Shown in pieces: positions 3,059 through 48,183 of a DNA stretch of 64,000 nucleotides. The notes below the pieces were generated by a model. The model did no database searches. It was not told the DNA's origin and saw nothing but the letters and a program-made list of their open reading frames with translations. The stretch is taken from positions 1,659-65,658 of the forward strand of contig JBNKJW010000091.1 of the NCBI GenBank assembly GCA_050291445.1, read 5' to 3'. This stretch comes from Bacteroidales bacterium (GTDB taxonomy: Bacteria > Bacteroidota > Bacteroidia > Bacteroidales > NBLH01). The translations under genes and the position numbers were made by a program. Within the stretch, counting starts at the first letter, position 1. The number at the start of each line of letters is the position of its first letter.

Positions 3059-3514
3059 TTATATTTTGTTTAATAGATTTTCGTTATCACCAATTTCATC
3101 CCGCACACATTGTTTAATAATGTCAAATACCTTTACCATTTGTTCAATATCAGTTTGTTTTAATTTTTCCATTAACTTTTCATTAAAAGTCAGCACTGTT
3201 TGTTTGGCCAGTTTTCTTTTGGCTACTCCTTCCGAAGTTAAAAAAATTCTAACAATCCTTTTGTCATCTTTATCGCCTTCTCTAAATATTAGACCTTTTT
3301 TTTCCATGTTTTTCAAAAGACGACTTAAAGATGTTGGTTCCATGCCCATAAGAGGGGCTATTTTAGTGGCTGGTGTCCCTTCCTTTTCAACATTAATTAA
3401 AACATAGGCAATGGTTTGGGATAAATCGTACTTATTGGCAATACTATTGTACATTCTTGACATAGCATGCCAAGTTGATTTAAGATGAAAATCAACAGTT
3501 TCTTTTAATTTCAT
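3059..3514 (-). CDS. MarR-family transcriptional regulator
   Basis: 151 aa. Winged-HTH pattern TPATKIAPLMGMEPTSLSRLLKNMEKKGLIFRE..DKR. Sits upstream of the beta-oxidation genes. Confidence 0.85.
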   Translation of the reverse strand: MKLKETVDFHLKSTWHAMSRMYNSIANKYDLSQTIAYVLINVEKEGTPATKIAPLMGMEPTSLSRLLKNMEKKGLIFREGDKDDKRIVRIFLTSEGVAKRKLAKQTVLTFNEKLMEKLKQTDIEQMVKVFDIIKQCVRDEIGDNENLLNKI

Positions 3515-3648
3515 AAAAACAAATTTATTATGCTTGCATTACAAATTTATGAAAAAACATTATGCATGCAAAGGAATTATTTTGTTATTTTTGATTTGAT
3601 TTTACTAAAATATTTAAACCAAAATTCAATCAGTAAATAAATATTAAA

Positions 3649-4074
3649 ATGAAACTATCTGATTTTAAGCATGTTAAAAGAGTTGTTGTGCGCTATGATG
3701 ACTTGGATACCTTTAGCCATGTGAATAACAAAGCTTATTTGGCTTATTTAGAAGAGGCTCGTGTCGACTATCATAAACAACTATTTGAATGGAAGGGGCT
3801 GCTTGAATTTAATGCAATTGTTGCCAGAATTGAGATCAATTACATTCTTCCTGTATTTTATGGTGATGACCTTTCTTTGTATACAAGAGCTTCTAATATT
3901 GGAAACAAAAGTTTTGAATTAGAGACCTACTTTGTAGTACAAAAAGGGGAGGAAAAGGTAAAGGTTGCTGAGGCTAAAGTTGTTTTGGTTACAATTGATC
4001 CAAAAACAGGGAAAACCAGGCCAATTCCTGAAGAGGAAAAAAGAATCTTGTTGGAATTTGAAGGAAAGGCCTGA
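3649..4074 (+). CDS. acyl-CoA thioesterase, 4HBT/YbgC-like hotdog fold
   Basis: 141 aa. VRYDDLDTFSHVNNKAYLAYLEEARVDY matches the 4-hydroxybenzoyl-CoA thioesterase family signature. Confidence 0.8.
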   Translation: MKLSDFKHVKRVVVRYDDLDTFSHVNNKAYLAYLEEARVDYHKQLFEWKGLLEFNAIVARIEINYILPVFYGDDLSLYTRASNIGNKSFELETYFVVQKGEEKVKVAEAKVVLVTIDPKTGKTRPIPEEEKRILLEFEGKA

Positions 4075-4078
4075 TTCC

Positions 4079-5359
4079 TTACAAATATTCAATAACCTGC
4101 TCAAGTTTAATCCCACGCGATGCTTTTAATAAAATAGTAAAGTTTAGTAGCTCTTTACTTTTAAAAAAATTGCAAAGTGAAAGGGTGTCTGTAAAGAAAT
4201 GGTACTGCCCAAATGAATTGCTAAACTGGTAAAAATTATCACCAATAAAGAAAGCCTTATTAAAACCCAGTTTCGTTACCAGTTCAATAACTTTTAGATG
4301 CTCTTCTTTACCTGATTTGCCAAGTTCAAACATATCGCCCAAAATAAGTGCCTTTTTATCTTCTTTTATATTTAAGAAGTTTTTTATGGCAAGCTCCATA
4401 CTTGTTGGGTTGGCATTGTAGGCATCAATTATTAGTGTGTTTTTATTCGTTTTTTTTAGTTGAGAGCGGTTATTTTGTGGCTGGTATTCTTCAAGAGCAC
4501 TGATAATTTTGTTAGTAGGGATTTTAAAATAGGATCCAACAGATATTCCAGCTAAAATGTTATTAAAATTATACTCCCCAACAAGCCTGGTTGTAATTAG
4601 GTTTTCACCCCATTTTATTTTTAAAAAAGGACTGGAACCAATAAATTCAGCAAAAGTATTTTGCTTGGAACTCTTTCCATAGGTTATTTTAGTAAGGTTT
4701 ATAGCTTGTTTTAGCAATAAGTTATCCTCTCCATTAATAAATACTGTGCCGTTTTTTTTTCTTAAATAGACATAAAGTTCTGATTTGGTTTTTATTACGC
4801 CCTCAAATGAACCAAAACCTTCAATATGTGCTTTGCCAATGTTGGTGATAATACCAAAATCAGGATCTGCAATACCACATAACTCATCAATTTCACCCTG
4901 ATGATTTGCGCCCATTTCTACTACGCCCATTTCCGTTTCTTTTGTAAAAGATAATAAGGTTAAGGGTACACCTATATGATTATTAAAGTTTCCTTTTGTG
5001 TAACCAAGGTTGAATTTTTGTTGTAAAATTCTGCTAATTAACTCTTTAGTGGTGGTTTTTCCATTTGTGCCGGTAATGGCCAAAATAGGAATTTTTAAAT
5101 ACTTTCGATGATATTTTGCAAGCTCCTGGAGGGCAGATAATACATTTTTAACTAGGATAAACTTTTCATTTTTAGCAAATTCCGCTTCATCAACAATAGC
5201 ATAAGATGCTCCTTTTTCTATTGCCACATTTGCATATTTATTACCGTTAAAGTTATCGCCTTTAAGTGCAAAAAAAAGCTGCCCTGTTTCAATTTTCCTT
5301 GAATCGGTGGTTACACCAGATGAATTTAAATAAATTGAATGTAATTTTTGTATTTCCAT
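4079..5359 (-). CDS. murF: UDP-N-acetylmuramoyl-tripeptide--D-alanyl-D-alanine ligase
   Basis: 426 aa. Mur ligase P-loop ITGTNGKTTTKE and DAYNANPTSM motif. Confidence 0.9.
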   Translation of the reverse strand: MEIQKLHSIYLNSSGVTTDSRKIETGQLFFALKGDNFNGNKYANVAIEKGASYAIVDEAEFAKNEKFILVKNVLSALQELAKYHRKYLKIPILAITGTNGKTTTKELISRILQQKFNLGYTKGNFNNHIGVPLTLLSFTKETEMGVVEMGANHQGEIDELCGIADPDFGIITNIGKAHIEGFGSFEGVIKTKSELYVYLRKKNGTVFINGEDNLLLKQAINLTKITYGKSSKQNTFAEFIGSSPFLKIKWGENLITTRLVGEYNFNNILAGISVGSYFKIPTNKIISALEEYQPQNNRSQLKKTNKNTLIIDAYNANPTSMELAIKNFLNIKEDKKALILGDMFELGKSGKEEHLKVIELVTKLGFNKAFFIGDNFYQFSNSFGQYHFFTDTLSLCNFFKSKELLNFTILLKASRGIKLEQVIEYL

Positions 5360-5360
5360 A

Positions 5361-5397
5361 ACTAAAAATAAAAAACCCGCTGTATTTACAACGGGTT
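5361..5397 (-). terminator. Rho-independent terminator downstream of gldJ
   Basis: On the minus strand, AACCCG (12-nt loop) CGGGTT is followed by TTTTTATTTTT. It lies between the gldJ stop (5423) and the murF start (5359). Confidence 0.55.
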
Positions 5398-5422
5398 AAA
5401 AATATAAAGTAAAATTTATTTT

Positions 5423-6937
5423 CTAAAATCCACCTGGGCTACCTACCCTTGTCATTGCACATCTAAAACCTAAGTTTTCCTTTGCTTTTCTTTCATCAAG
5501 ATACCTTCTGGTTCCCGGGCTCATCCAATACATTCTGTCATTCCAGCCCCCGCCTTTGTATACTCTGGTGCGGTCACTTACCATTGAAGTCATATTTTTA
5601 CCTTTGGGGCCTGTTCCTGCGTAGTACATTCGGTCAGAACCTTTTGTATCCGAAACATCCAGCCATCCGCCTTCAGTATCAATGCTTGATTCAACGTCAC
5701 CATCTCTGTAGTTAATATTATCTGCTTTTTGATAGTTATGTCTTGAATAATCATCAGCTACAGGATCGAATGCAATTCTTCCTAAAGAATCTTTGTCTGC
5801 AATGGTTCCATCGGGATTTCTTCTCACAGTTTTAAATACATTTCCTCTAAATGGTCTGAATTCCTCAACATCTAAAGACGATAATTGCCTGAACACGTCT
5901 AAACACCATTCGTTTACGTTTCCAGCCATGTTGTACAAGCCATAATCATTTGGCCAGTATGCATCAACTGGAGCTGGTACCGATGCATTATCATTAAGCG
6001 CACCTGCAACACCCATCATATCACCACGTCCACGTTGGAAGTTTCCACGGAATTTACCTCGGTTTTGCTTGGTGTCATTTCTAACATAATGGCCATTCCA
6101 AGGAAATATTTTACGATTGTATATTCTTTCTGGCGATCCCATTGAGTTACCAATTAAACCAAGTGCTGCATATTCCCACTCAGCTTCCATTGGTAAACGG
6201 TACTTAGGAAGCATGATTCCATCTTCCATTATTGCGTGTCTTTCACCACCATCAAGTGTTGGTAAGTTTTCACGGATACCGCTTTCGTATTGACCTGCTA
6301 AATAGGCTTGTGTATTAAAATTGTCTTCGTCTACCTGGTTAGGGTTAGCCTCAAGAATTCCTTCATCCATTAAAGCCATTTCGTTTACCCTGTCTGTTCT
6401 CCAGGCGCAATAATCGGTTGCTTGTAGCCAACTTACACCTACAACAGGATAATTGTGGTAGGCCGGGTGCCTAAAGTAGTATTCTACGTAGGGTTCATTG
6501 TATGCAAGTTTTTTTCTCCAACAAAGGGTGTCTGGTAAGGCTTGTAAATAAACTTGTGGATAACTTACGTAAACTTTTGCTATCCAGTTCATGTATTCAC
6601 GATAATCGATGTTCCTTACTTCTGTTTCATCCATGTAATATGAAGCTACGGTAACTCTTCTGGGAATATTATTCCAGTCATAAATTACATCCTGGGCAGT
6701 TTGTCCCATTATAAATGTACCGCCTTCGATGAATACTAATCCGGGGCCTGTTTCTTGCTCAACATAATCAGAAACTTCGAAACGCCCAACGTCAGGATCG
6801 TTATATGCCCAGCCAGTTGTAGTGGATTCGCTACCTACACCGGCACCTCCACCTCCTCTACCAAAGCAAGAGCTTAATGAAATGGTTATTATTACTGATA
6901 TTACAAGTAAAACTGATTTAATCTTCATAACTATCAC
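5423..6937 (-). CDS. gldJ: gliding motility lipoprotein GldJ (SUMF1/FGE-like domain)
   Basis: 504 aa. Lipoprotein signal with Cys (ISLSSC) and an FGE-sulfatase-like C-terminal region (RVYKGGGWNDRMYW). The murF/gldJ/porU/porV neighbourhood is as I recall it from Flavobacterium. Confidence 0.85.
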   Translation of the reverse strand: MIVMKIKSVLLVISVIITISLSSCFGRGGGGAGVGSESTTTGWAYNDPDVGRFEVSDYVEQETGPGLVFIEGGTFIMGQTAQDVIYDWNNIPRRVTVASYYMDETEVRNIDYREYMNWIAKVYVSYPQVYLQALPDTLCWRKKLAYNEPYVEYYFRHPAYHNYPVVGVSWLQATDYCAWRTDRVNEMALMDEGILEANPNQVDEDNFNTQAYLAGQYESGIRENLPTLDGGERHAIMEDGIMLPKYRLPMEAEWEYAALGLIGNSMGSPERIYNRKIFPWNGHYVRNDTKQNRGKFRGNFQRGRGDMMGVAGALNDNASVPAPVDAYWPNDYGLYNMAGNVNEWCLDVFRQLSSLDVEEFRPFRGNVFKTVRRNPDGTIADKDSLGRIAFDPVADDYSRHNYQKADNINYRDGDVESSIDTEGGWLDVSDTKGSDRMYYAGTGPKGKNMTSMVSDRTRVYKGGGWNDRMYWMSPGTRRYLDERKAKENLGFRCAMTRVGSPGGF

Positions 6938-7934: not shown

Positions 7935-8227
7935 TTATATACTATTCTTTATTTGTTAGCTGTTTATATTAATGAAACCCTCATTGAAGGATTTATACGG
8001 AGAATCCCCCTCCTTGTAATGATTATGGGGCTGATTTTCATGTTTTAGCTATAGGTTAAATGTGTGAAAAAATGTTGCTAATTTAACCATCAATTAAAAA
8101 TTATGCCTAAAGTATAACGTAAGTAATTGAAAAATTGTGTGTAGCTAAAAAAATATAATTTGTGCACAATAAATTTAGCTAATTAGATTTGTATAATTTT
8201 ATACCGATTTTATAAAACCTATCAAAA

Positions 8228-11200
8228 ATGTATAAATTAAGGTTCGCTTGCTTGCTACTGATTCATTTTGTCGTCATAAAATCTGTTTATTCACAGAATT
8301 CAAATCAGCATTTTGAGATAAAGTGGCAGGATAAACAAGCTTTTTTTTCAATTGAAAATACTAATCAATCTTACCTGTTGTATTTTGAAGGAGCTGTTTA
8401 TGAGTATTCTAAGAGTTATTTGCCGCTATTTTCAAAACTTCTAAAAACAAATGATACACAAATAGAAGTTAAGTTGTTAAATCAAAAATATAGTGGTTTA
8501 ACCAAAGCTGAATTAAGTCAGGTTAAAGATATTGACAAAATACCTGGTGAAATAAAGGTGAAAAGTAAAGTGCAATTTATTAGAAAACAGACTTGGTTAG
8601 CACTCACTTTTATTCCTTTAAGGAAAAATAAATTGACAGGACAGTATGAAAAACTGATAAGTTTTGATGTTGAATATATACGAGCAAACAAAACAAAGAC
8701 TACTTCTCTAAAGAAATATTCTTTTGCTAATCAATCAGTGTTGCGATCTGGTACATGGATAAAAATTAAACTACCTAAAAGCGGTGTTTACAGGCTATCT
8801 TTTAACGAGTTAAGAGATTTAGGGATTGACCAGCCCGAAAATGTAAGAATATTTGGTAATGGTGGCAAAATGTTGCCCTATAACAACTCTGAAAAGAGAC
8901 CAGATGACTTGATTGAGAACCATGTTTTGTTTATGGATAATGCAGTTTATTTTTATGGGGACGGACCGGTTCAATGGGAATATGATGAAACCACAGACTT
9001 TTTTCATCACCAACGAAATTTGTATACCGATTATTCTTATTATTTTTTAAGTTCGGATTATTCTTCGGGAAATAATAATGCAATTGTTCAGGAAAATCAG
9101 GTAACAGGAGCGCAAACACATACCATTAATACATTTACGAATTTAATCTATCATGAAATTGATACCTTAAATTTGATTGGCTCGGGAAGGTTATGGGTTG
9201 GTGAAAGCTTTGATTTTCAGAACAGGTATGCCTTTAATTTTGAATGCCCTGGTTTGGTAACAAGTTCATTAGTTAAACTAAAGACTTCGCTGATTGCCCG
9301 GTCGCCTGTATCGAGCAATTATTTAATTAGTCTGGATGGAACCTCGTTTCAAAGTAATTTTAGTCCTGTAACTTACAGATACGAAGATGAATATGCGAAA
9401 CATAAAGTGGAGCATTTTGAAGCGCAGGTTAATAGTACAAATGAAATTAATGTACAGCTGGAGTATGTTGGCTCAGCTTCTTCAGAAGGCTGGTTGGACT
9501 ATTTATGTTTGAATGCTGAATGTGGACTCAGACTTGAAGGCCAGCAATTGCATTTTAGGAACACTCAGTCAGTTGGTTCAGGAAATATTGGGTTATTTCA
9601 ATTAAGTAATGTAAATAGTAATACTGTTGTTTGGGATATAACAAACCCTCAACAACCAAAACAGGTAAGTACAAACCTGAATGGTTCCACCCTTAGTTTT
9701 AAGCTATCAACTGATACATTAAGAGAGTTTATTGCCTTTGATCCTTCTATGGCGTACTCGCCAATTACTTCGGGTGAGGATATAGGCCTGGTGGAAAATC
9801 AAAACCTGCATTCAATTAATCAGGCAGATATGGTTATTATTAGCCATCCGGAATTTATAGAGTACGCCAGTGAGTTGAAGCAAATCCATGATGGTGAAAA
9901 TAAACTGAGTATTCAACTAGTTGATATTGAGCAAGTATACAATGAGTTTTCATCAGGGGGTAGAGAGGTTACAGCAATTAGGGACTTTATGAAAATGTTG
10001 TATGATAGGGCATCAAGCAATGAACAACTGCCGAAGTACCTTTGCCTGTTTGGAGATGGTTCTTATGATAATAAGCATACTTTCAGTAGTAACACTAATT
10101 TTATACCTACCTATCAGTCAGATAATTCGCTTAGTCCTACCCAATCGTTTGTTACTGATGATTTTTTTGGGCTTTTGGATGATAATGAAGGAGGTCACGA
10201 TGGCCTTGTTGATATTGGAATAGGGCGAATTCCTGTAAAAACAAAAGCTGAGGCAGCCTCAGCCATTCAAAAAATAAGGAAATACTTAAGCTCTGAGGCT
10301 TTTGGCGATTGGCGGAACAGGCTCTGTTTTATTGCTGATGATGAAGACAACAACATACACCAAAAGCAAGCGGATGAGTTAACTAGTATAATTAAAGATA
10401 AGTACCCTGTCTTTAATATTGAAAAAATATTTTTGGATGCTTACACCCAGGAGAGTTCAGCAGGAGGACAACGCTACCCCGGGGCAAAACTTGCAATTAC
10501 CAATCAAATTGAAAAGGGTGTTTTGGTAATGAATTACACTGGCCACGGCGGTGAAAGTGGATTAGCCCATGAACGGGTAATTACCATTGATCAAATTAAT
10601 AAATGGGCAAATAATGATAAATTACCTGTTTTTATGACAGCTACCTGTGAGTTTAGTCGTTTTGACAACTATGAAAAAACCACGGCTGGCGAGCTGGTAT
10701 TTCTAAATCCACAGGGAGGAGCTATTGCCTTGTTTACAACAACTCGTCTGGTATATGCTTCGCCAAATTTTCAGCTGAATAAAAATTTTTATAACTATTT
10801 GTTTGAAAATGATATTAGCACAAACAACAGGTTTAGGTTGGGCGATATAATGAGACTTACTAAAAATGCTTCGGGTTCAGGAATAAATAAACGAAACTTT
10901 ACTTTGCTTGGAGATCCCGCCCTTGAATTATCATTTGCAAACCACTTTATAAAGACCAATTCGATTAATGGTAAGGCAGTTCAATTAAATGCTGATACAC
11001 TAAAAGCGCTTGACAAAGTGACAATTACCGGAGAAGTTCAGGATATTACTGGAACAAAAATTATTGATTATAATGGAATTGTGTACCCGGCCATTTATGA
11101 CAAAGAAAATGAGGTGAAAACATTGAATAATGATGGTGATGGTGTATTTACCTATAAGGTGCAGAACAGTAAGTTGTTTAAAGGACAAGCAAGTGTAAAT

Positions 11201-43552: not shown

Positions 43553-44827
43553 ATGCTGACAATTAAGATATTAAGAGAACAAAAAGACGAAGTTGTTAAA
43601 CGTTTAAAGATTAAAAATTTTGAGGCTGAAGCTATTATTAATGACATTTTAGAAGTTGATAATCAGCGCAAAGAGGTACAAACAAGTTTGGATAATTGTT
43701 TAGCAGAATCAAATAGTTTATCAAAGCAAATTGGGCAGCTATTTAAAGAAGGAAAGCAGCAAGAGGCAAATGCTGCTAAAGAACGTACGGGTGTTTTAAA
43801 AGCCGAATCGAAAGAGCTTAGTGCAAAATTAACCGAGCTTGAAAATAAGCAGAACGAATTGATTGTACAGTTACCAAATATTCCAAGCGAAGAAGTTCCT
43901 CCAGGAAAAGGAGAGAATGATAATGTAGAGGTGAAAAGTGCTGGCGATATACCTGAGTTGGGCAATAATAAATTACCTCATTGGGATTTGGCAAAAAAAT
44001 ACGATTTAATTGATTTTGAACTAGGTAATAAAATTACAGGATCAGGTTTTCCGGTATACAAAGGGAAAGGTGCCAGATTGCAAAGAGCCTTAATTACCTA
44101 TTTTTTAGATAGGGCTGTTGACGAGGGCTATTTTGAAGTAATTCCTCCTTTGATGGTGAACGAGGCTTCAGGTTTTGGAACAGGTCAATTACCTGATAAA
44201 GAGGGGCAAATGTATCATGCAACTCAGGATAATTTTTATTTAATTCCAACAGCAGAAGTTCCGGTAACCAATATTTTTAGGGATGAAATATTAAGCAGCG
44301 AAGACTTTCCTATAAAAAGAGTTGCCTATACTCCTTGTTTCAGGCGCGAAGCAGGCTCGTATGGTAAAGATGTTCGTGGACTAAACCGTTTACACCAGTT
44401 TGATAAAGTTGAGATTGTTCAATTGCGTCACCCATCAGATTCTTACAATGGTTTAGATGAAATGGTAAGCTACGTAGAGTCGTTGGTTAAAAGTTTAGGT
44501 TTGCCTTACCGAATTCTTAAACTTTGTGGTGGCGATATCAGTTTTACTTCAGCACTCACCTATGATTTTGAAGTATTCTCTGCTGCACAGGAAAAATGGC
44601 TGGAAGTAAGTTCTGTGTCTAATTTTGTTGATTATCAGGCAAATAGGCTTAAACTAAGATTCAAAGAAAAGGGTGAAAAGAAAACCCAATTGGCACATAC
44701 TTTAAATGGAAGTGCTTTAGCATTACCACGCATAGTCGCCGCTCTTTTAGAAAATAATCAAACTGCCGAAGGAATAAAAGTACCAGAGGTATTGGTTCCT
44801 TATATGGGGATTGATATGATTTCGTAA
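43553..44827 (+). CDS. serS: serine--tRNA ligase
   Basis: 424 aa. N-terminal coiled coil and class II motifs (FRREAGS, TLNGSALALPR). Confidence 0.95.
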   Translation: MLTIKILREQKDEVVKRLKIKNFEAEAIINDILEVDNQRKEVQTSLDNCLAESNSLSKQIGQLFKEGKQQEANAAKERTGVLKAESKELSAKLTELENKQNELIVQLPNIPSEEVPPGKGENDNVEVKSAGDIPELGNNKLPHWDLAKKYDLIDFELGNKITGSGFPVYKGKGARLQRALITYFLDRAVDEGYFEVIPPLMVNEASGFGTGQLPDKEGQMYHATQDNFYLIPTAEVPVTNIFRDEILSSEDFPIKRVAYTPCFRREAGSYGKDVRGLNRLHQFDKVEIVQLRHPSDSYNGLDEMVSYVESLVKSLGLPYRILKLCGGDISFTSALTYDFEVFSAAQEKWLEVSSVSNFVDYQANRLKLRFKEKGEKKTQLAHTLNGSALALPRIVAALLENNQTAEGIKVPEVLVPYMGIDMIS

Positions 44828-44905
44828 GATAATGATATATAAATTTTTTGGATGGGTGTTATTTTTTGGATGATGCCCATTATTGTTTTAATGACAAATT
44901 AAATT

Positions 44906-44913
44906 TACTTTTG
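44906..44913 (+). promoter_or_regulatory. candidate -7 box for the ATPase/nuclease-like operon
   Basis: TACTTTTG lies 27 nt before the ATG at 44940. Only a partial -33 (ATTG, ending at 44885) is present. Confidence 0.35.
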
Positions 44914-44939
44914 CTTAGTAATCAATGAACTAAAAGATT

Positions 44940-46226
44940 ATGAGCCTGATTTTTAAAATAAATGAACTTGGCCCGATAAAAAATACGCAATTTGAGTTTA
45001 AGCCATATTGTATTTTCACAGGTGAAAGTAATTTGGGGAAAAGTTATTCGGCTTTTTTAATTGCTGCCTTTTTTAAACTTATAGAGGAAGAGCATTTTAA
45101 AGTATTTGTTGATGACTTATATGATTTTACTAAGTTAAGTAAGACAATAGCTGAAGGTAAATCTGATACAATATTATTTGAGAGGAAAGGTTTTCAAGAA
45201 TATTTATACAAAAACATACCACAGCAAATTGCATACCTTACAGGAAATGAGTTGTTTGATTGTGATGTGGAAGTAGAAACTGAACTTGATGATATTATCA
45301 TTGAAGTTAATTCTCCGAAGAGTCGAAAATCATTACTTGGTAAAAATGTGCCATTTGTTACTGTTGATGGAACTATAGAAAAGATTGCTGAATCTTATAC
45401 TGAGCAAAATGAAGAAAGTCTTATTTCTTTTTTTCATATGAAGATTTATCGAGAACTCCTAAAAAGGATTTTTAAAAGAAATTGGTTGGGAACAATCATA
45501 TTACCTCCAGGGCGAGGGGCTGTTTACCCTTCATCATTTACAATGAAGAAGAATATTGCCAATACAGGCATGTATAATGATTTTTTGGAGAGGATGGATG
45601 AGGTTACTTCACCAAGTGCTTTAAAAAATGAGCATGATGAGTTAATTGATAAATTATTATTGGAGATTTTTCAGGGCAAGATAAGTGTTGATAAGGATAA
45701 ATTTTATTATGATTTTAATGGGCAAAGAATTCCCTTACAAGCAGCTGCTTCATCTATTAAAGAGTTGGCTCCGATGCATTTAATTTTGCAAAAAGGTAAT
45801 TTGAATGAAAAGTCTGTTCTACTTGAAGAACCAGAGGCTCATCTACATCCAAATCTACAAAGGAAAATCGCTTCGCTTTTAGCAGTTTTTATTAATAGGG
45901 GAGGTTTTTTACAGGTTACAACACATAGCGATTATTTCCTTAACCAAACAAATAACCTGATAAAAATGGCCGTTCTTAAGAAAAAGGAAACGGAAGGGTT
46001 TTCTGACTTAAAAGAAAAAGTTGAAAAGTACGGAATTCAAGAAGGAATGTATTTGGATAAAGAGAAAGTTGGTGCGTATTATTTTGAAAAGAGGGAGGAT
46101 GGTAGTGTTGAGATAAAAGAACAGAACTTGACCAAAGAAGCTATTCCATTTGATACGTTTGAAAAAACTGTAAATGGGATGATGGATGAGACTGATCTTA
46201 TTAATGAATCCTTTTATTCAGAATAG
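44940..46226 (+). CDS. ABC/OLD-type (AAA_15/AAA_21-like) ATPase with no fused nuclease domain
   Basis: 428 aa. Walker A is GESNLGKS. Walker B and the following motif are VLLLEEPEAHLHP. The H-loop is QVTTHSDYF. An insert of about 260 aa separates Walker A from Walker B. Confidence 0.85.
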   Translation: MSLIFKINELGPIKNTQFEFKPYCIFTGESNLGKSYSAFLIAAFFKLIEEEHFKVFVDDLYDFTKLSKTIAEGKSDTILFERKGFQEYLYKNIPQQIAYLTGNELFDCDVEVETELDDIIIEVNSPKSRKSLLGKNVPFVTVDGTIEKIAESYTEQNEESLISFFHMKIYRELLKRIFKRNWLGTIILPPGRGAVYPSSFTMKKNIANTGMYNDFLERMDEVTSPSALKNEHDELIDKLLLEIFQGKISVDKDKFYYDFNGQRIPLQAAASSIKELAPMHLILQKGNLNEKSVLLEEPEAHLHPNLQRKIASLLAVFINRGGFLQVTTHSDYFLNQTNNLIKMAVLKKKETEGFSDLKEKVEKYGIQEGMYLDKEKVGAYYFEKREDGSVEIKEQNLTKEAIPFDTFEKTVNGMMDETDLINESFYSE

Positions 46227-46227
46227 T

Positions 46228-46815
46228 ATGTTAGAAAAAGTCACTGAAATCTTTAAGGATGAATTTATTCTGCAAAGTACTGTTGATGAAATTATAATCG
46301 ACCTGAGTGAAAAAGGGGAAGATTGCAAGATAAAGCTTACCGGAGGACAATATATTGAACTAAGGGATGGACTTGTAGAGAGTTTAGGAAACAAGCTGTT
46401 AAAAGGTAAATTGGGAGAAAATTGCGATGCCATTATCCTAAATAAGTCAGAGGAAAATATAAACCTCTTTTTAATTGAGTACAAAAACAATATTGGGTTT
46501 AAGAATTTTGAGAAAATATGTAATCAATTAAATGCAACTTATGTTAAAACTTTAGCATTAATAAATATAGTATTCAAGATTGAAGATATAAATGTAATTT
46601 ACGTTTGTGTTGGTAAAATTCATGAAAAAGCACAAAAAGCTGTTTTATCTTCTAAAACAAACAAACCAAATTTGTTAAATCAATTGGTCAGAAAAGGTGA
46701 AACTTCAATAAAAGAGATCCCCTTCAGATTGGGTTTTTCTGTTAATGACTCCTTTCGAAAATCGAATGTGAATTTTGTACATTCAGAATGTGGGACTACT
46801 TCGCTTTCAATTTAG
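46228..46815 (+). CDS. small protein of unknown family with a D...ExK (PD-(D/E)xK nuclease-like) motif
   Basis: The start is taken at the ATG at 46228, 1 nt after the ATPase stop. The track ORF starts at 46186 inside the ATPase gene. The motif is GENCDAIILNKSEENINLFLIEYKNN, with D and ExK 17 residues apart. The nuclease assignment is motif-level inference only. Confidence 0.55.
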   Translation: MLEKVTEIFKDEFILQSTVDEIIIDLSEKGEDCKIKLTGGQYIELRDGLVESLGNKLLKGKLGENCDAIILNKSEENINLFLIEYKNNIGFKNFEKICNQLNATYVKTLALINIVFKIEDINVIYVCVGKIHEKAQKAVLSSKTNKPNLLNQLVRKGETSIKEIPFRLGFSVNDSFRKSNVNFVHSECGTTSLSI

Positions 46816-46908
46816 GGTATTTTTTAAGTGATTAAAATCATTTGCCCAACCGGTAAAATGGAATAATTTTGTCGGGATTTTACTATCTGTGTATTAAAAT
46901 TTAGAGCT

Positions 46909-48183
46909 ATGAGGAATTTATGGATTCTACTATTACTTATCACTTTTTCAGCTACTTCGCAGGTTAAGTTTGACGACTATTTTTTGCCAAAAACCCTTCG
47001 TTTTGATTATACCAGGGCTGGTGATGCTGATACCTCAAAGGTTTTTTTTGAACAGCTGAAACAAGAGCAATTTTGGGGAGGTTCAAAAACCAATTTAATT
47101 GACACTTTTCAGTATGGCGATTACATGCTTCAGGTTTACGATTATACTGGCGAAAAATTGATTTATTCAAGAGGTTACTCCTCGCTGTTTCGCGAGTGGA
47201 TTGATACAGAGGAGGCCAAAACTTTGCCCAGAAGTTATTATGGTTCGGTGGTAATGCCCTTTCCAAAGCATAAAATCACAATAAAACTGCAAAACAGAGA
47301 TAAAAAAAATGTGTTTAGGACAGTTTACGAGCTAAAAGTTGACCCAAATAATAACTATTTCATTGTAAAAGAAGAAGGCAATAAATATAAAACTGAAAAA
47401 CTACATGACTCAGGAGATCCTTCCATAAAACTTGATATAGCTGTACTGGCTGAAGGGTATACCCGCCAGGAAATGGATAAGTTCAAAAAGGATGTAGAGC
47501 GTTTTATAGGCTATTTTTTCAAAGTTTCGCCATTTAAAGAGAACAAAGATAAAGTAAACTTTTGGGCGGTTTATTCAGAATCGGAAGAATCAGGAACTGA
47601 TATCCCAGGGATAAATATGTGGAAAAAGACCGTATTAAATACCAATTTCTATACTTTCAACAGCGAGCGATATTTAACCACCCGTGATGTAAAGCAAATT
47701 CGTGACTTGGCTGCACATGTGCCTTATGATCAGATATATATACTTGTAAATAGTGACAAGTACGGTGGCGGAGGTATTTATAATTATTACAATTTATGCA
47801 CTAGCAACAACCAATATTCCGAAGAGGTTTTTACTCATGAATTTGGCCATGCATTTGCTGCATTAGGAGATGAATATCAATATGGTTACGAAAATGCAGC
47901 AGATATTTATGATATGAGTGTGGAGCCATGGCAAGTAAATCTGACCAATTTGGTTAATTTTGATAGCAAGTGGAAAGATTTGGTAGAGAAGGAAACACCA
48001 ATTCCTACTCGCGAAGAAGATAACTTTAAAGATAAAGTAGGTGCTTTTGAAGGTGCCGGTTATGTAAAAAAAGGTATATACAGGCCTGTTTATGATTGTA
48101 AAATGCGATCAAATTCAACAAAAGAGTTTTGTCCGGTTTGTTACAGGGCAGTTTTGGCATTTTTAAAGTTTTACACCGAATAG
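46909..48183 (+). CDS. M64-family (IgA-peptidase-like) zinc metallopeptidase
   Basis: 424 aa. Signal peptide and HEFGHAFAALGDEY zinc motif. Size and N-terminal domain are consistent with M64. Confidence 0.85.
   Translation: MRNLWILLLLITFSATSQVKFDDYFLPKTLRFDYTRAGDADTSKVFFEQLKQEQFWGGSKTNLIDTFQYGDYMLQVYDYTGEKLIYSRGYSSLFREWIDTEEAKTLPRSYYGSVVMPFPKHKITIKLQNRDKKNVFRTVYELKVDPNNNYFIVKEEGNKYKTEKLHDSGDPSIKLDIAVLAEGYTRQEMDKFKKDVERFIGYFFKVSPFKENKDKVNFWAVYSESEESGTDIPGINMWKKTVLNTNFYTFNSERYLTTRDVKQIRDLAAHVPYDQIYILVNSDKYGGGGIYNYYNLCTSNNQYSEEVFTHEFGHAFAALGDEYQYGYENAADIYDMSVEPWQVNLTNLVNFDSKWKDLVEKETPIPTREEDNFKDKVGAFEGAGYVKKGIYRPVYDCKMRSNSTKEFCPVCYRAVLAFLKFYTE

Follow-up and report, generated by a model that had tools for sequence, protein, structure and literature searches.

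The DNA analysed here is a stretch of 64,000 nt from a Bacteroidales bacterium (contig JBNKJW010000091.1, positions 1,659 to 65,658), called the window throughout, and our subject is a pair of adjacent genes lying between serS and an M64 peptidase gene. The first gene (44940..46226, plus strand) encodes an OLD/ABC-type ATPase of the PD-T4-4_A type with 428 amino acids (aa), as judged by Pfam, PADLOC, motifs and an AlphaFold2 (AF2) model. The second (46228..46815, plus strand) encodes a putative small nuclease effector of PD-(D/E)xK type with 195 aa, probably a remote homologue of PD-T4-4_B, with D67, E84, K86 and Q100 as catalytic candidates. Along the window the order is rplU, rpmA, serS (43553-44827), the ATPase-nuclease cassette, the M64 peptidase gene (46909-48183), a MarC gene and an RNase H gene. 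The pair probably belongs to a known, experimentally validated class, that of PD-T4-4 and WonAB, and opens no new system class.

The two genes are nearly abutting; the ATPase stop TAG occupies 46224-46226, a single spacer base follows at 46227 and the ATG of the partner is found at 46228. A mechanical open reading frame (ORF) finder and the public database gene call both place the start of the effector at ATG 46186, giving a protein of 209 aa which overlaps the ATPase by 41 nt, but the N-termini of all effector homologues align to ATG 46228 and the 195-aa form. This conservation supports ATG 46228 as the predicted start.

The product of the first gene is an ABC ATPase of the OLD family to which no nuclease domain is fused, as the results from Pfam, PADLOC, motifs, AF2/Foldseek and solved sequences agree. 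Pfam detected AAA_15/AAA_21 over residues 6-335 and nothing else, hence no TOPRIM, HNH or other effector domain, and TOPRIM was absent also by NCBIfam and PADLOC. The Walker A motif is GESNLGKS (residues 28-35, with K34), the Walker B/D-loop reads VLLEEPEAHLHP (293-304) and the H-loop is TTHS (327-330). Further motifs are LPPGRG (with R192) and the signature-like AASSIKE (268-275), and a C-terminal extension of about 90 aa is helical/β in the model. Walker A and H-loop are both invariant in an alignment of 65 homologues with 29-67% identity, as are G-S-GKSY of Walker A, P189, S272 and E275 of AASSIKE, and EEPE-H-HP, while P190 and R192 are nearly so.

Among 94 matches of the ATPase in PADLOC-DB the best was the PD-T4-4_A model PDLC04033 (E 2.4e-32, 110.8 bits, two stretches), and a second PD-T4-4_A model, PDLC04032, matched at 7.9e-18. 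Other matches were PDC-M47A (7e-26), NsnB, HEC-02A (3.5e-14), AriA (8.6e-12) and PDC-M29A (2.6e-11), followed by the weaker GajA (best 2.6e-9), PtuA (5e-7) and Old (within 1e-9 to 1e-7); the NCBIfam PtuA equivalog reached 19.3 bits against a cut-off of 500. The AF2 model, built from the 65-homologue alignment, has a predicted local distance difference test (pLDDT) score of 88.2 and gave 169 Foldseek matches in the PDB at E <= 1e-3. These were led by retron Eco8, retron IA/Ec78/Ec83 PtuA and Septu PtuA, then Rad50/SMC heads, with E from 1e-9 to 1e-6. The nearest solved sequences are the OLD family nuclease 6p74 and PtuA, with the similarity confined to the Walker B-H-loop stretch, and the comparison with PDB sequences revealed no solved structure from the ATPase's own subfamily.

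No Pfam, NCBIfam or PHROG match was found for the effector. A word-indexed search with it returned three proteins (itself and two at 52-54% identity), and seven when run with the family alignment; the first three, used as a profile in an exhaustive search, led to 37 representative proteins, nearly all of 195-229 aa. In the resulting family alignment (34-37 sequences, mean column identity 25%) the sole invariant columns are D67, E84, K86 and Q100, in the pattern C-D-G-I...(I/L)-E-(L/Y)-K...Q-L. That D, ExK and Q alone are invariant across a family of such low identity is what one would expect from a catalytic site. In the window effector the two motifs are CDAIIL (66-71) and FLIEYK (81-86), with 9 residues between them and 16 between D67 and E84. 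One further protein of 4076 aa (P0132) has six stretches matching positions 18-73 of the three-sequence effector profile (E 8e-10); it is probably repetitive or of low complexity and was left out of the effector alignments. A match of the effector to PDC-M53A (E 0.004) was rejected as noise, being seen in only 1 of 34 family members.

The AF2 model of the effector has a pLDDT of 91.6, a predicted template modelling score of 0.89 and an α/β core. In order, the model presents a helix (47-57), a strand (68-74, with D67 at its start), a strand (77-89, carrying E84 and K86), a helix (91-112, with Q100) and a strand (121-131). Members of the PD-(D/E)xK superfamily have a conserved D...(D/E)xK triad on the β2-β3 hairpin of an αβββαβ core, and in the predicted model the arrangement of strands, helices and motifs is that of such a core. 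A profile search of PDB sequences with the effector found nothing. The majority of its top 30 weak Foldseek matches in the PDB are nevertheless nucleases of the restriction endonuclease (REase) fold, and the weak matches include FokI, DdmD, AF1548, PaqCI, Upx, BspD6I, BsoBI, XisH, SgrAI, BamHI, Cfr10I and Hachiman HamA. The modelled protein hence reads as a candidate divergent nuclease of the restriction-enzyme fold.

A first-pass annotation of the window, made from the sequence alone, had described much of this. Its ATPase of 428 aa with Walker A GESNLGKS and H-loop TTHS was borne out, as was the lack of TOPRIM, HNH or other effector domains in that protein, and a partner of about 195 aa starting 1 nt past the ATPase stop agrees with the ORF coordinates and the homologue N-termini. 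The core it judged compatible with PD-(D/E)xK has D67, E84 and K86 invariant, and so is Q100, which the annotation did not mention. Two readings need correction: the Walker B motif with its extension is present, but the sequence is VLLEEPEAHLHP and not LLLEEPEAHLHP, and both CDAIIL and FLIEYK are there, but the gap had been counted as 13 residues.

Further we compared the effector family with PD-T4-4_B. The PADLOC PD-T4-4_B models match 5 of the 34 family members (best 5.2e-8) and PDC-M29B matches 11 of them (best 2.7e-7); P0126, the nearest outgroup of the window effector's clade, matches PD-T4-4_B at 3.6e-5. An hhalign comparison of the family with the PD-T4-4_B alignment gave E 8.2e-5 at a probability of 61%, with both N-termini aligned and CD/CD, ExK/DxK and QL/QLE in register. 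The hidden Markov model (HMM) of the effector family was run on the complete set of 593 ORFs from the window and from every locus fetched. It matches three plasmid-encoded PD-T4-4_B proteins (8e-6 to 3e-5) and, in a P2-like Vibrio phage, the protein paired with a PD-T4-4-like ATPase (within 2.5e-6 to 3e-5), and among the 593 ORFs nothing besides genes downstream of ATPase relatives was detected up to E = 10. The size class is common too, as the effector has 195 aa, the PADLOC PD-T4-4_B models 190-206 positions and the plasmid PD-T4-4_B proteins 198-210 aa. With four independent links, sequence comparison supports the effector family as a remote but consistent homologue of PD-T4-4_B.

Bona fide PD-T4-4 pairs for reference were recovered by tblastn of plasmids with the window ATPase, in Klebsiella pKPN6 and in E. 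coli plasmids. These pairs score 1e-123 to 1e-260 against PD-T4-4_A and 1e-44 to 1e-108 against PD-T4-4_B, and the plasmid PD-T4-4_B proteins have no Pfam family and carry the motif SCDLV...D-x-K...Q-L/I-E-N-S. Compared to the plasmid PD-T4-4_A scores, the 2.4e-32 of the window ATPase marks it as a distant PD-T4-4_A member. In Klebsiella pKPN6 (NC_009652.1, 4259 bp) and E. coli pSCU-105-5 (4802 bp), tiny non-mobilizable plasmids of ColE1 type, the PD-T4-4 pair is the near-sole cargo, the other content being Rop and a helix-turn-helix protein; this may bear on a possible additional role of PD-T4-4 in plasmid maintenance.

Relatives of the ATPase (31-67% identity) were collected from Bacteroidota contigs, Prevotella intermedia, Bacteroides capsule loci, a spirochaete and eight IMG/VR contigs, the viral contigs being scanned with the ATPase alignment. 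In 21 of 21 loci the effector-family HMM matches the ORF directly downstream of the ATPase relative, and the stop-start distances in homologous pairs are 1-8 nt or overlapping. As the flanking genes vary between sites, the unit is taken to be exactly two genes. In Prevotella intermedia the ATPase relative adjoins mfd, and in three gut Bacteroides contigs (L020, L021 and L022, at 8001-9984) the homologous pair lies inside capsular-polysaccharide loci. Upstream of these three the glycosyltransferase sets vary by contig, and the pair and the downstream genes are constant. On IMG/VR contigs homologous pairs were found between tape-measure and tail-sheath genes (L026:4905-6996), near an amidase gene (L027:4986-6931) and upstream of the genes for a Rha-like regulator and a large terminase (L030:4983-6955), while in the P2-like Vibrio phage 1.202.O (L033:1484-3515) the pair lies between the repressor and integrase genes. 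The two genes thus travel together among genomes, phages and plasmids.

To compare the site itself across relatives, species-representative genomes were scanned with the M64 protein, which gave seven loci (L002, L003, L004, L009, L010, L013 and L015). In the closest, L009 (91% identity for serS and 89% for M64), the serS-M64 site is empty and the genes are parted by a 168-bp spacer (5833-6000), both ends of which align to the window spacers flanking the cassette (44828-44939 and 46816-46908). The site is empty also in L010 (serS 74%, M64 69%), and is occupied by the pair in L002, L003 and L004 (serS 77-81%, M64 72-74%). Of the more distant loci, L013 carries genes for a ParE toxin (Pfam 1.7e-8) and an FKBP protein besides a 77-aa ORF at this position (3331-4336), and L015 an FKBP gene and an NhaA gene (4009-5906). 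The serS 3' spacer is accordingly a variable slot in related Bacteroidales/Bacteroidota, with the pair in four lineages and empty in two. Between the window and L004 the identity is 67% for the ATPase and 53% for the effector, compared to 72-81% for the neighbouring proteins, hence the pair diverges faster than its flanks. No convincing target-site duplications, inverted repeats or remnants were found at the cassette borders and the empty site, and no integrase or tRNA at the borders. Neither tRNA, tmRNA nor Rfam families at gathering threshold were detected anywhere in the 64-kb window, and such an integration target is thereby lacking. The pair is an accessory element, polymorphic at the serS-M64 site. 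A check of presence and absence at serS had been suggested by the first-pass annotation, and its proposal of an immunity pair of ATPase and nuclease is supported by the accessory, mobile behaviour of the module. Presence or absence at serS, together with the phage, plasmid and varied chromosomal settings, argues for an immunity or conflict module and not a core function.

Which named system does the pair resemble? PD-T4-4 was obtained from E. coli ECOR58 by functional selection, lies in an element resembling an integrative and conjugative element (ICE) and is experimentally validated (Vassallo et al. 2022, PMC9519451). Its components are given as an OLD-ABC/P-loop ATPase and a PD-(D/E)xK nuclease (bioRxiv 10.1101/2025.07.10.664194; PMC12137116). 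Like the window pair it is a two-gene operon with equal gene order, nearly abutting stop and start and carriage on mobile elements. In both, A is an OLD/ABC ATPase that lacks a nuclease domain and B a protein of about 200 aa, of (putative) PD-(D/E)xK type and without a Pfam family, and they have the motif layout CD...(D/E)xK...Q(L/I) in common. Differences are also evident, as the PD-T4-4 ATPase has 460-483 aa compared to 428 aa in the window, with about 29% identity over Walker B to the C-terminus and insert regions that BLAST does not align. Moreover, B has DxK where the window effector has ExK, with an effector identity below 20%, and the window pair has a Bacteroidota host and is a solitary chromosomal copy with no ICE.

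WonAB is carried by the V. cholerae WASA-1 prophage (WonA AWB73975.1, WonB AWB73976.1), and its authors group it with PD-T4-4 as a family of ABC-ATPase sensors and nucleases (PMC12137116). Both WonAB and the operon described as 'OLD-ABC ATPase + novel REase' (Krishnan et al. 2020; PMC12137116) are like the window pair in architecture and proposed logic. By residue number only, WonA resembles the window ATPase in that K34 is the same, while R182, E300 and H333 are close in number to R192, E296/E297 and H329 in the window. WonB is smaller than the window effector (16.1 kDa versus about 22 kDa), and WonAB is prophage-borne and from Gammaproteobacteria. We infer the relation of the window pair to WonAB by way of PD-T4-4, as stated in PMC12137116, and not from a direct sequence comparison. 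PDC-M29, PDC-M47 and HEC-02, which are computational candidates in PADLOC-DB v2 without experiments, are like the window pair in their ATPase matches, and PDC-M29 also in matches to the effector family; PDC-M29B differs in having a shorter model (164 positions) and no direct match from the window effector.

An OLD-family ABC ATPase serves as sensor or regulator in Septu, retron PtuAB, Gabija, PARIS and P2 Old, where the effectors are HNH (PtuB) or TOPRIM (GajA, AriB and Old). These systems give the best structural matches of the ATPase model together with weaker PADLOC scores, and no HNH or TOPRIM match was found in the window partner by Pfam, NCBIfam or PADLOC. Assignments to Gabija, Septu, PARIS, Old and AbiL were therefore rejected, since the TOPRIM/HNH effectors are lacking and the profile scores fall far short of that of PD-T4-4_A.

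The first-pass annotation had likewise set Septu, PARIS and Gabija aside, and the absent effectors and weaker scores agree with it. It went astray in calling the system uncharacterised, since the best ATPase model is PD-T4-4_A and the effector family appears homologous to PD-T4-4_B, and in taking the partner to be smaller than, and different from, known effectors, as PD-T4-4_B is of equal size class and apparently homologous. Assignment to a named system, which the annotation itself had listed as speaking against its proposal, is largely what we found, because PD-T4-4 has been validated in E. coli (PMC9519451) and its relative WonAB dissected in V. cholerae (PMC12137116).

For the mode of action we rely on these relatives, namely WonAB (PMC12137116) and PD-T4-4 (PMC9519451, bioRxiv 10.1101/2025.07.10.664194). 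Both WonAB genes are required for defence, which is abolished by K34A, by mutants of R182, E300 and H333 and by K71A in the effector, and K71A abolishes toxicity as well (PMC12137116). Overproduced WonB is toxic, but only with WonA and its ATPase activity, and not in a ΔwonAB background; WonB is degraded by Lon (PMC12137116). When WonAB acts, the chromosome stays intact and translation stops, and infection is aborted after phage DNA replication has begun (PMC12137116). Purified EcPD-T4-4 forms higher-order complexes and cut none of 11 DNA substrates (bioRxiv 10.1101/2025.07.10.664194). By analogy, the window ATPase may dimerise head-to-tail around two ATP sites, and its C-terminal extension would bind one or two nuclease subunits and keep them inactive. 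A cue arising in phage replication, acting jointly with the binding or hydrolysis of ATP, might then license the nuclease, which would arrest the infected cell in an abortive infection. As WonB stops translation without degradation of the chromosome and EcPD-T4-4 left all DNA substrates uncut, we favour, with low confidence, an RNA of the translation machinery rather than bulk DNA as the possible target of the nuclease.

We consider it likely, from sequence relationships and by analogy, that the window pair is a divergent Bacteroidota/phage-clade member of the named PD-T4-4/WonAB family, present as a solitary chromosomal copy and acting as an anti-phage system of abortive-infection type with an ATPase-licensed nuclease. 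The pair is placed as a distant clade because of the four effector links, yet the window effector itself falls below the models, and this and several other results weigh against our interpretation. It has no PD-T4-4_B model match in PADLOC at E <= 1, and pairwise BLASTP with a PD-T4-4_B protein was not significant (<20% identity). A Foldseek comparison of the effector model turned up nothing at E <= 1e-3 in either PDB or BFVD, the best match being FokI (E 0.047), so that the nuclease fold rests on motifs, topology and the enrichment among weak matches. Within 10 kb of the cassette there is no defence island, integrase or other mobile-element marker, and the neighbours are all housekeeping genes. 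It should also be noted that phage protection has been demonstrated for E. coli PD-T4-4 and V. cholerae WonAB only, and for none from Bacteroidota (PMC9519451, PMC12137116).

The pair could also be thought of as an addiction module resembling toxin-antitoxin systems, not primarily immune, with the nuclease as toxin and the ATPase as its neutraliser, kept since loss kills the cell. Homologous pairs as near-sole cargo of ColE1-type plasmids of 4.2-4.8 kb would fit this, as would the ParE toxin module in the serS-downstream slot of L013 and the solitary position amid housekeeping genes. The toxicity of overproduced WonB points the same way, but since it needs WonA and its ATPase activity it argues against simple sequestration (PMC12137116). 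The clean empty sites in close relatives imply that loss is tolerated, and protection against phages is known from both PD-T4-4 and WonAB (PMC9519451, PMC12137116); we find addiction improbable as the main role. The small protein might on the other hand have no catalytic activity and serve as an adaptor or sensor with a degenerate fold of restriction-enzyme type, the ATPase acting by another route. This would account for the missing significant structural match to any nuclease and for the uncut DNA substrates of purified EcPD-T4-4 (bioRxiv 10.1101/2025.07.10.664194). It seems very improbable with D, ExK and Q as sole invariants at 25% mean identity, and with the equivalent lysine mutant of WonB, K71A, losing both defence and toxicity (PMC12137116).

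A housekeeping function in DNA repair or recombination, where a Rad50/SbcC- or RecF-like ATPase and a structure-specific nuclease work on the host chromosome, has hardly any probability. The ATPase model does match Rad50/SMC heads, and the neighbours are core genes, as is mfd beside the Prevotella intermedia relative; but the ATPase lacks a coiled-coil insert of Rad50/SMC length and its best model matches are defence ATPases. The pair is moreover absent at the equivalent locus of the closest relative, patchily distributed in unrelated contexts, carried by phages and plasmids and faster in divergence than its flanks.

Returning to membership of the PD-T4-4/WonAB family, we speculate that the Bacteroidota/phage clade might be a functionally distinct branch whose ExK nuclease cuts, instead of DNA, a specific RNA of the translation machinery, and, separately, that the serS 3' spacer might be an integrase-independent slot which recurrently captures small immunity or toxin modules. 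Taken jointly we regard these ideas as rather unlikely; if true, either the RNA-cutting branch or the capture slot would exceed current knowledge of PD-T4-4/WonAB substrate and acquisition.

As the window effector lies below the PD-T4-4_B model thresholds, automated tools would probably report an orphan ATPase here and miss the system. The defence-finder models, mostly derived from Proteobacteria, recognise the ATPase but miss the effector, hence the frequency of the clade among Bacteroidota, as among phages of gut and environmental origin, is probably underestimated. With the present alignment and HMM, in which D, ExK and Q are invariant, the effector family could be annotated. The compact Bacteroidales pair (428 and 195 aa), both proteins being confidently modelled, is a reasonable extra candidate for biochemistry.

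Finally, we looked at possible transcription signals around the cassette. A TAnnTTTG box (Bacteroidota -7-type promoter), TACTTTTG, is found at 44906..44913 on the plus strand, 27 nt upstream of the ATPase ATG, just where it had first been noted. Across the AT-rich window this motif has 112 matches compared to 105.5 expected from shuffles, so the motif alone is not above chance, and a scan for sigma-70-type promoters (13 matches against 10 expected) was uninformative. The orthologous loci L003 (TATATTTG) and L004 (TATTTTTG) each have a TAnnTTTG box in the corresponding place, within a spacer whose remainder is poorly conserved. The hairpin scan revealed a terminator-like hairpin with a T-run downstream of serS (44851..44881, plus strand), which parts serS from the cassette, and L003 and L004 have an equivalent GGATGCTA...TAGTATCC hairpin and T-run downstream of serS. 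A further terminator-like hairpin lies past the effector gene (46850..46875, plus strand), in spacer sequence common to the window and the empty L009 site. With the positionally conserved box and terminator-like hairpins after both serS and the partner, it is plausible that the cassette forms its own transcription unit.

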